A DNA stretch of 64,000 bases from Candidatus Dormiibacterota bacterium (lineage in GTDB: Bacteria > Chloroflexota > Dormibacteria > CF-121): positions 154,685 to 218,684 of the forward strand of contig DASZZN010000012.1 in the NCBI GenBank assembly GCA_035544955.1, read 5' to 3'. Of the stretch, positions 45,500-47,202 are shown piece after piece; the first letter of the stretch is position 1, and every line of letters starts with the position of its first letter. A program made the position numbers and the translations under genes. The notes under the pieces are model-generated. The model searched no databases. It was not told the origin of the DNA and was given only the letters and a program-made list of their open reading frames with translations.

Positions 45500-46576
45500 A
45501 TGGCCAATCCACGCTTGCGGCAGACGGTCAGCGCGCCGCCTCCTTTCGCGGCCGCTCTCGAATCGGGGACGGGCTACGAGGCGCTCCTGGGCCTCTCCAT
45601 GTTTACCGGCGATGAGCCGCAGGAGTCGTATGAGGTCGGCAAGGCATGGTTCGCGCGGGCACGGGCGGCGGCGTCGCCCGAACTACGGACCGCGCTGAAA
45701 AAGCTCATGGGCACCGACGGACCACGATGGTTTCTTCTCCTGGGGATGGTCCACGAGGCGGGCGGTGCCCATGACGTCGAGCGCCTGCTGATGCATCTCC
45801 GCGCCACACGCCCGCTCGAAGTCCTGATCGCCCTGATCGGTGGCCGCCTACCGGCGCTGCGGACGACCGAGGGACAGACGCTGGTCAAGGCGGCGCTCGC
45901 GGGTCAGGCCAGGGCCAGTGTCGCATTGGCCGCTCGCGACCACGGGAGTGACGCGAAGACCATCAGGGCCCTCCTCGGGATGGGCGCCTTGGAGGTCAAG
46001 CGGCTGGCCATCGAGGTGGTCACCAGATGGTACCGGGAGGTTTTCAAACCGATGGGTGACAACGCCGACGCGCTCGCCGCCGACGTCACCGCCAAGACCA
46101 GGGTCGCACGCCGGATGTCCCCGAATCAGCTGGTGGATTTTGCGACGGGCGGGATCACGTACGAAGGCGAAGCCGGCATCGACCATGTACTCCTGGTTCC
46201 ATCGATCGTGACCCGCCCGTGGATCACGATCTCGGATTGGGACAGCACCAAAGTGATTTGCTATCGCGCTGCGGGCGCGGGCGCCGCGGCCGCCGGAGAG
46301 CCCGACCGAGATCTGGTCCTCATGTACCGGGCGCTGGGCGATGAGACCCGGCTGCGACTCCTGCGCGAGCTGGCGGCCGGGGACCGGCGCCTGGCCGAGC
46401 TCGTTCAGGCTCTTGGCCTATCCAAATCCACGCTTCACGGCCACCTTGCGGTGCTGCGAACGGCCGGGCTGATTCGTCTCAGCATCGGCGCGGAAAAGCG
46501 GTATGGCCTGCGACCGGGGCTCCCGGACCTCAACCGCCTGCTCGGCGACTACATCGGACGGACCAACTCGGGTTAG
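45500..46576 (+). CDS. ArsR/SmtB-family transcriptional regulator with a long N-terminal extension
   Basis: C-terminal ArsR HTH (LGDETRLRLLRELAAGDRRLAELVQALGLSKSTLHGHLAVLRTAGL). N-terminal roughly 250 aa of unknown function. Confidence 0.6.
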   Translation: MANPRLRQTVSAPPPFAAALESGTGYEALLGLSMFTGDEPQESYEVGKAWFARARAAASPELRTALKKLMGTDGPRWFLLLGMVHEAGGAHDVERLLMHLRATRPLEVLIALIGGRLPALRTTEGQTLVKAALAGQARASVALAARDHGSDAKTIRALLGMGALEVKRLAIEVVTRWYREVFKPMGDNADALAADVTAKTRVARRMSPNQLVDFATGGITYEGEAGIDHVLLVPSIVTRPWITISDWDSTKVICYRAAGAGAAAAGEPDRDLVLMYRALGDETRLRLLRELAAGDRRLAELVQALGLSKSTLHGHLAVLRTAGLIRLSIGAEKRYGLRPGLPDLNRLLGDYIGRTNSG

Positions 46577-47202
46577 GAGCGAGCTTTGCCTGTATCGCGC
46601 CGCGGGACTTCGACCTTCGCCATCACTCGCTCGAATAGCTCGTAGGGCTGCGCGCCCATGATGAGATAGCGGCCGGCGATGACATGGGCCGGGATGCCGT
46701 TGATCCCGAGCTGCTCTGCCTCGGCGCGTCGCGCGTCGAGGTAGTCGCCGAATCGATTCTCTTGGACGGCGGCCTCCATCCCCGCGAAATCGACGCCGGC
46801 GCGCGCCGCGACGTCCTTCAGAACAGCCATGTCGGAGACGTCTCGACCATCATCCCAGTACGCCTTGAGCAACTCGTGGTGCATAGCGGCAAACCGGCCC
46901 TGCTCCCGCGCGAATTCGGCGGCCTGCAGGGTGGGACGGGAGTTGATCAGTCGCTCGTGCAAGCTGAGGTGCAGGCCCACCGCGGCGGCCATTCGATTCA
47001 CCCCCTCCTGGGCCCTCGCCATGTAAGCCGCGGGCAGGACCTCGTTGCGCGGACGCCCCTCCGGCGGGATCTCGGGGTGCAGCTCGAAGGGCACCCACTC
47101 GACCTCGACGTCGTATTCCCGCTCCAGCCGTGCGACTCCGACCGAGTCGATATAGCAGAAGGGTCAGACGTAGTCGGAGTAGATCCGCACGGGGGTGGGC
47201 AT
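46573..47202 (-). CDS. DsbA/FrnE-like thioredoxin-fold oxidoreductase, probable selenoprotein (U-P-F-C redox motif, in-frame TGA at 47164-47166)
   Basis: Translating upstream of the ORF-track start (47094) in the same frame gives MPTPVRIYSDYV-TGA-PFCYIDSVGVARLEREYDVEVEWVPFELHPE. This is the canonical FrnE N-terminus IYSDxVCPFCY, with TGA at the first Cys position. ATG at 47202. A SECIS-like hairpin follows. Confidence 0.6.
47133..47149 (-). promoter_or_regulatory. SECIS-like hairpin 14 nt downstream of the in-frame UGA
   Basis: mRNA sequence CGACUC-GGUCG-GAGUCG: a 6-bp stem whose apical loop contains GGUC, as in bacterial SECIS elements. Confidence 0.45.

Follow-up and report, generated by a model that had tools for sequence, protein, structure and literature searches.

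DsbA-like proteins with selenocysteine (Sec, U) at the first position of a UxxC motif form a described selenoprotein family. They were predicted in 2005 from the Sargasso Sea data as nine COG2761 sequences (PMC1088965), were later found in Anaeromyxobacter dehalogenans, Desulfovibrio desulfuricans and Desulfotomaculum reducens (PMC1794560), and are listed in a 2026 review as "DsbA-like protein form 1, PF01323, UxxC" (PMC13188914). The family, for which these three papers are the sources, has also been predicted in Asgard archaea. Here we describe a gene of this type in a 64,000-nucleotide stretch of contig DASZZN010000012.1 from a Candidatus Dormiibacterota bacterium (the whole stretch is referred to below as the window). 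The gene lies on the minus strand at 46573..47202 and was first noticed in an initial annotation, which had stated that its family was already predicted to contain selenoproteins; the sources above agree. Based upon sequence comparison, we propose with a probability of roughly 0.88 that it encodes a genuine Sec-containing cytoplasmic FrnE-like oxidoreductase with the motif U13-P-F-C16.

The window gene was compared with the DsbA-like form 1 representatives by their published description. Shared features are PF01323, Sec at the first Cys of UxxC, widespread Cys homologues and a selenocysteine insertion sequence (SECIS) hairpin directly after the UGA. The Sec-type set assembled here also includes the myxobacterium Archangium, from a group in which the family has been reported in complete genomes. 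The window lineage differs in being known from soil metagenome-assembled genomes (MAGs) of Ca. Dormibacterota or "Chloroflexi", for which a report of Sec use was not found. In addition, the window gene carries its predicted Sec at codon 13 of a possibly leaderless mRNA and is fixed back-to-back with hrcA-grpE-dnaJ. On every sequence-level criterion it is a predicted DsbA-like form 1 selenoprotein; the family is known, and no report of it was found for this lineage.

The full-length open reading frame (ORF) consists of 209 codons and a TAA stop at 46575-46573; its product would be about 23 kDa in size. Read on the minus strand it begins ATG CCC ACC CCC GTG CGG ATC TAC TCC GAC TAC GTC TGA CCC TTC TGC TAT ATC GAC TCG GTC GGA GTC, which translates from the ATG as MPTPVRIYSDYV, then TGA, then PFCYIDSVGV. 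The ATG at 47202, the TGA at 47166-47164 and the PFCYIDSVG that follows all stand where the initial annotation had placed them. The principal features of the coding sequence are as follows.

47200..47202, minus strand: start codon ATG (ATG in 39/43 and GTG in 4/43 distinct orthologues), at which the three-base periodicity of variation starts
47164..47166, minus strand: UGA, predicted Sec, codon 13, first position of the UxxC redox motif (TGA in 43/43 Dormibacterota-type sequences)
47155..47157, minus strand: TGC, Cys16, resolving cysteine of U-P-F-C (TGC in 42/43, TGT in 1/43)
46690..46692, minus strand: Pro171 codon in the G-I-P motif (G169, I170 and P171 invariant; aligned with the G-V-P of FrnE)

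When Cys was put in place of the TGA, residues 5-193 matched positions 2-189 of the 191 in the Pfam profile DSBA (PF01323) with an E-value of 2.4e-32 (112.7 bits against a cut-off of 25.6). Because this match runs from residue 5, the domain begins upstream of the TGA and spans it. The closest solved relative is FrnE of Deinococcus radiodurans (PDB 5CNW and related entries; E 1.3e-23, residues 5-194), the alignment covering both the active site (CPWC against U-P-F-C) and the G-V-P loop (against G169-I170-P171). The column of Cys16 holds the second Cys of CPFC or CPWC in every homologue aligned. These Pfam and PDB matches support membership of the DsbA/FrnE-type thioredoxin fold and bear out the earlier description of the product as a FrnE/DsbA-like oxidoreductase. 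By analogy with other thioredoxin folds, Pro171 is expected to be the cis-proline of the loop that faces the active site.

FrnE resembles the window protein in being cytoplasmic, in having its active site near the N-terminus without a signal peptide, and in sharing the same helical insertion and G-[IV]-P loop. Since its active site lies at residue 13, the window protein likewise has no signal peptide and should be cytoplasmic. The two differ at the active site, which is of the Cys type (CPWC) in FrnE and of the predicted Sec type here, and in length, FrnE having 260 residues with a C-terminal tail against 209. This tail carries a second Cys pair in FrnE. No counterpart of the tail or of its Cys pair was seen in the window protein, which ends at residue 209 and has U13 and C16 as its only Sec and Cys residues; the second-Cys tail is probably specific to the Deinococcus protein and not a defining property of COG2761. 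E. coli DsbA, which is secreted and acts as an oxidant, has the thioredoxin fold with helical insertion and a CxxC-type active site in common with the window protein. It is periplasmic, whereas the window protein has no signal sequence and resembles FrnE far more; chains labelled DsbA in the PDB match over the C-terminal half only (E ~1e-5).

To place the TGA among its homologues, 160 loci (numbered with the prefix L) were gathered from scans of one-genome-per-species contigs and metagenome contigs, and the DNA was read at the corresponding column. Exactly the same column holds TGA in 73 other loci (L002-L017, L029 and 56 metagenome loci) and TGC or TGT in 83 homologous loci with the motif SDYVCPFCY. 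The initial annotation had claimed that the TGA falls exactly on the first Cys of the FrnE motif and had suggested alignment with Cys-type orthologues as a check; in that alignment the TGA coincides with the first Cys codon of all 83. About 47 of the 73 TGA loci are close orthologues, 74-92% identical, from soil MAGs titled "Candidatus Dormiibacterota bacterium" or "Chloroflexi bacterium". The MAGs are from grassland or permafrost soils, and those with the gene include the assemblies of contigs VBFR01000230.1, VBFX01000220.1, DASWBA010000067.1, DASYVR010000040.1 and DATASI010000178.1. The more distant ones belong to Ardenticatenaceae, Thermomicrobiales, Archangium (L012 and L013, including the cultured A. 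violaceum Cb vi76), Dehalococcoidia and several further metagenome groups. In total, at least five lineages have TGA at this column.

These counts bear on the possibility of an error in sequencing or assembly at the TGA, or of a recent nonsense mutation by which this copy became a pseudogene. A single window, taken alone and with Sec machinery unseen in it, would leave room for such an explanation. However, 73 loci that were assembled independently, and that come from many samples and several phyla, share this TGA, and the window locus itself recurs unchanged in another assembly (L001). In orthologues with 75-92% identity the ORF is uninterrupted before and after the TGA and is under purifying selection. 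We regard an error or a pseudogene as barely credible. Both had been named as alternatives by the initial annotation: a sequencing error at the TGA is refuted by the 73 independent loci, and a pseudogene by the selection pattern described below.

Public annotation presents the gene in another form. The mechanical ORF call is 46573..47094 (minus strand, GTG start, 173 aa), and a protein search returned 461 relatives at E <= 1e-10, the best 120 of which were all N-terminally truncated (167-193 aa, with 79-91% of the query covered). Four annotated NCBI entries start with MDSVGV, that is, at the ATC codon downstream of the TGA. No curated NCBIfam selenoprotein model covers the protein, the best being a partial sub-threshold match to Rcas_1661, and pipelines therefore truncate the gene. 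That the ORF caller starts at 47094, and that standard annotation misses the locus, had both been anticipated; among the matches listed, 120/120 homologues lack the N-terminus.

Where translation really begins was addressed through the pattern of substitutions among 42-43 distinct Dormibacterota-type sequences. Within codons 2-12 the variable sites at codon positions 1, 2 and 3 number 4, 0 and 11, respectively. In the 15 triplets upstream of the start they number 8, 10 and 8, the periodicity being lost; in three sequences a TAA stands in frame three codons ahead of the start. Downstream of the TGA, P-F-C-Y and other residues within codons 14-36 are invariant and a conserved start codon is absent; because the protein is conserved there without such a codon, this segment must be translated from upstream. 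The codons flanking the TGA vary almost only synonymously, indicating purifying selection at the protein level on both sides. At the level of codon substitution, these data demonstrate that the predicted ORF is translated across the UGA from 47202 and is under purifying selection on either side of it. Judged by the same pattern, initiation at 47202 with decoding of the UGA is the only reading that fits. Some caution is due on the upstream reading made in the initial annotation, in that the frame upstream of the TGA stays open for ~390 codons (47164..48336); this long open frame is an antisense shadow of hrcA and is non-coding.

The substitution data also address the short form given in the databases, in which translation would start after the UGA (at GTG 47094 or at the ATC) and yield 173-193 residues without a CxxC, the sequence upstream serving as a leader. 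Every public gene call favours it. Against it, codons 2-12 and 14-36 vary in a coding manner with P-F-C-Y invariant, and a protein shortened in this way would be without the first beta-strand and the active site, both of which are covered by the Pfam and FrnE alignments from residue 5. The downstream "starts" moreover differ between records (GTG, ATC and CTG-type), therefore indicating gene-caller artefacts. We consider the short form highly improbable. Genome-wide reassignment of TGA was also rejected: at least nine Pfam-confirmed window genes, among them hrcA, lepA and a major facilitator superfamily (MFS) gene, end in TGA.

The following elements were located immediately downstream of the UGA.

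47133..47149, minus strand: SECIS-like upper hairpin (CGACUC at 47149-47144, loop GGUCG at 47143-47139, GAGUCG at 47138-47133)
47123..47160, minus strand: possible extended SECIS, with a putative lower stem of nt 7-9 paired with 42-44 and 11-13 with 38-40 (RNAalifold, several broken pairs; also in the minimum free energy fold of the window)

Numbered from the U of the UGA as nt 1, the upper hairpin occupies nt 18-34, starting 14 nt past the A of the UGA; the minimum free energy fold contains it. Its stem has 6 bp (7 bp in most orthologues), with a free energy of -8.2 kcal/mol, the extended fold reaching -19.2 kcal/mol. The base after the UGA is C, giving the context UGA-C, and this C4 is invariant. 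The consensus model for bacterial SECIS elements sets four requirements (PMC13188914): an upper stem of 4-16 bp that carries an apical loop of 3-9 nt; a G at loop position 1 or 2, or at both, with G or U as the usual next base; a distance of 16-37 nt from UGA to apical loop; and a free energy not above -7.5 kcal/mol. All four hold for the window hairpin, with a loop of 5 nt, a stem of 6 bp, a loop start of G-G-U, a spacing of 20 nt and the energy given above. Both the hairpin CGACUC-GGUCG-GAGUCG 14 nt past the UGA and the SECIS compatibility of its stem and GGUC loop had been put forward in the initial annotation, and both hold.

The SECIS of E. coli fdhF (K-12 genome) is likewise a hairpin in the coding sequence just after a UGA-C, with GGUC in its apical loop. 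The two differ in that GGUC lies at nt 22-25 in fdhF and at nt 24-27 in the window, 2 nt farther from the UGA, and in that the 6-7 bp helix of the window is perfect, with no bulged U; no similarity was seen between them outside the loop.

By the same simple test, a hairpin of bacterial SECIS type was present in 83% of 66 distinct Sec-type and 6% of 81 Cys-type sequences, the former figure being dominated by one clade of closely related Dormibacterota-type sequences. Because of this dominance, further independent evidence was sought. Within the Dormibacterota-type clade, the synonymous codon heterozygosity of the hairpin codons 18-23 (ATC GAC TCG GTC GGR GTC) is 0.077, compared with a mean of 0.378 for the gene, and no other of the 145 six-codon windows has a value as low (rank 1). 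Five of the eleven degenerate codons without synonymous variation in the gene lie within the hairpin, and the sole variable hairpin site, GGA/GGG, exchanges a U-A pair for U-G. Between lineages, the helix of nt 17-23 with 29-35 was 96.4% paired over 12 sequences from at least five lineages, against 24-50% in slid controls where the partner was moved by 1-3 nt. Compensatory changes were found at pair 22-30 (UA, CG, GC, AU, UG) and at pair 23-29 (CG, AU, UA). Pairing is kept though the encoded peptides differ (IDSVGVE, IGEGIVE, VGLVEVE, IGSVRVD, VGQDRVE), and G25 is kept in at least 90% of the sequences across lineages despite a changing encoded residue. Unguided RNAalifold recovered the same helix together with the weaker lower stem. 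Taken as comparative evidence, these results go far beyond chance and demonstrate covariation of the candidate SECIS hairpin between lineages as well as selection on its own synonymous sites.

The Dehalococcoidia-type Sec forms (L014-L017, L029, L130-L133, L137 and L139) keep the TGA, but nt 17-35 do not form the short hairpin in them. The best folds of these forms have longer stems, with loops ~30-38 nt after the UGA. From these folds, one selenoprotein family seems to use at least two SECIS architectures.

Several observations, in addition to the clade dominance mentioned above, weigh against the presence of Sec. In the window ARAGORN detected one tRNA, a tRNA-Thr, and in 18 related loci none, so that tRNA-Sec was not found in either. 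With E. coli queries in tblastn, no SelA or SelD homologue was found in the window or the related loci, and SelB matched only the GTPase domain of LepA. A SelA query from the actinobacterium Miltoncostaea, taken from a plasmid record, gave 120 listed matches, all of them close relatives of the query and none labelled Dormibacterota, a result which says nothing on the present lineage. A literature search gave no paper linking Dormibacterota with selenocysteine. Local fold energy did not differ from that of shuffled sequences (z = -0.07, no excess stability at 65% G+C), and hairpin stability alone was for this reason not used as evidence. No Rfam SECIS family matched, either at the gathering threshold or at E-values up to 10. 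For a short bacterial SECIS in G+C-rich coding sequence, the null results for fold energy and Rfam are not unexpected. Finally, the incorporation of selenium into the protein is deduced from the DNA. If Sec is inserted, selA, selB, selC and selD are needed elsewhere in the genome.

It is in this light that one may ask whether the UGA is decoded as a residue other than Sec, either as Cys by a SelB-type factor with a tRNA(Sec)-like tRNA(Cys) or as Trp or Cys through near-cognate read-through. In 2016 Mukai et al. reportedly proposed the former route for some bacteria. Translation of the UGA is what the substitution data establish, the identity of the inserted residue being a further step, and the Sec machinery was not found in the window or related loci; both facts leave scope for this explanation. 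On the other hand, the UGA stands where the redox motif has its catalytic Cys, and Sec members of the family have been described; in both position and loop, the constrained hairpin corresponds to a SECIS bound by SelB. Plain read-through needs no hairpin and would yield mostly truncated product. TGC is one mutation away, yet TGA is kept in 43/43 distinct sequences. Decoding as another residue appears to us quite improbable. From the SelB-type element, the catalytic Cys position and the known selenoprotein family, we infer that the inserted residue is Sec.

The following mechanism is proposed for this Sec-containing enzyme. Translation starts at ATG 47202, and at codon 13 the ribosome meets the UGA in its UGA-C context, a context that terminates weakly in E. 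coli. The constrained hairpin with the GGUCG loop would act as the SECIS and recruit SelB-GTP with Sec-tRNA(Sec), so that Sec would be inserted in place of termination; the suppressed synonymous variation and the covariation of the hairpin lend this step indirect support. The product would then cycle between a selenol/thiol and a selenenylsulfide with Cys16; the bond is expected between U13 and C16 because the protein has no other Sec or Cys. As for Deinococcus FrnE, the presumed role would be the reduction or isomerisation of cytoplasmic disulfides.

Upstream, the gene shares a 57-nt region with a divergent operon on the plus strand, comprising hrcA (47260-48300), grpE (48317-48922) and dnaJ (48932-50053). 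Divergent hrcA-grpE was found in every Dormibacterota-type locus with enough upstream sequence and is absent from the other lineages. Three regulatory features were recognised in or beside this region.

47231..47257, plus strand: CIRCE-type (controlling inverted repeat of chaperone expression) inverted repeat, the HrcA operator, TTAGCACTC-N9-GACTGCCAA (consensus search, 2 mismatches)
47196..47225, plus strand: hrcA promoter-like site TGGGCA-18-TACAAT (one found against 0.2 expected), its -35 box overlapping the selenoprotein start codon
47209..47214, minus strand: putative, inferred -10 box TATCCT, ending 6 nt before the ATG (TAnnnT invariant in 40 regions)

In full the CIRCE-type site reads TTAGCACTC-GCTGATCGA-GACTGCCAA. 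It is the only match to TTAGCACTC-N9-GAGTGCTAA in the window (2 mismatches, 0 expected by chance); the inverted-repeat finder missed it owing to the two mismatches, and it was located by the consensus search. The operator lies 29-55 nt upstream of the selenoprotein start, with hrcA-grpE-dnaJ immediately downstream of it. Across 40 distinct intergenic regions both CIRCE arms, the hrcA -10 box and the TAnnnT box are invariant, and the 6 nt between the TAnnnT box and the ATG/GTG start vary freely. No Shine-Dalgarno sequence was found before the selenoprotein start, and the consensus promoter scanner made no call at the TATCCT box. Since there is no Shine-Dalgarno sequence and the TAnnnT box stands 6 nt before the start, the arrangement suggests a leaderless selenoprotein mRNA whose promoter would overlap the HrcA operator, and hence co-regulation with the heat-shock genes. 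Based upon the operator geometry and the conserved synteny, HrcA may control transcription of the selenoprotein gene.

Combining these points gives a broader picture: that Ca. Dormibacterota, an aerobic soil phylum, has fixed a single FrnE-like selenoprotein, made from a leaderless mRNA with a promoter overlapping CIRCE and serving in heat-shock-regulated cytoplasmic disulfide repair. We hold this combined picture to be possible but doubtful. If true, it would mean that the whole Sec machinery is kept largely for one protein. No second selenoprotein was seen in the window, where scans for TGA-interrupted frames and for TGA just upstream of called starts gave antisense shadows and non-coding stretches only.

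Both the protein family and the mechanism are already well known, but the locus is probably the first sign that Dormibacterota use selenium, and its link to the chaperone operon is unusual. According to reviews, selenoproteins are rarely retained by aerobic bacteria. A counter-example would be a soil clade in which all members sampled have a fixed Sec form that is physically coupled to the chaperone operon. For annotation, the truncation would amount to a phylum-wide error, whereby functional predictions for an abundant soil lineage miss a redox enzyme and a dependence on selenium. The gene, its candidate SECIS and the predicted tryptic peptide IYSDYV-U-PFCYIDSVGVAR provide a concrete handle for testing selenium use in uncultured Dormibacterota. 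The SECIS model, for its part, gains a well-supported covarying bacterial type with an outer UCG...CGA stem, which is common to Dormibacterota, to Ardenticatenaceae and Thermomicrobiales (two Chloroflexota lineages), to Archangium and to further metagenome groups.

On the other side of the gene, the minus-strand order is lepA, a radical S-adenosylmethionine gene and an MFS transporter (44167-45456, minus strand). Between the latter and the selenoprotein gene, 45500-46576 on the plus strand encodes a 358-aa protein with an ArsR-type helix-turn-helix (HTH) at its C-terminus only (residues 281-325), the ~280 N-terminal residues having no Pfam match. This gene is convergent with the selenoprotein gene, the stop codons overlapping by 4 nt, and divergent from the preceding MFS gene. 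Some of the related loci show the same synteny of the HTH and MFS pair with the selenoprotein gene.

Elsewhere in the window, a lactate permease gene followed by glcD-, glcE- and glcF-like genes (a flavin-linked (FAD) oxidase and an Fe-S subunit with CCG domains) occupies 7992-14254 on the plus strand. The glcF-like Fe-S/CCG family has Sec members elsewhere, and an in-frame TGA was not seen in the window copy. The sole window tRNA (37614-37689, plus strand) is atypical: its anticodon loop is CCAGUAA, with the anticodon AGU (Thr) and C33 instead of U33, its G+C content is 48% against 65% for the genome, and CCA is not encoded. It sits in a 2.8 kb region (35306-38073) with few ORFs and lower G+C. 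Finally, an 825-codon ORF at 18753-21230 on the minus strand has two domains in one frame, a luciferase-like monooxygenase (residues 184-476) and a UbiA prenyltransferase (546-781), and may be a fusion or two genes merged by the choice of the longest start.

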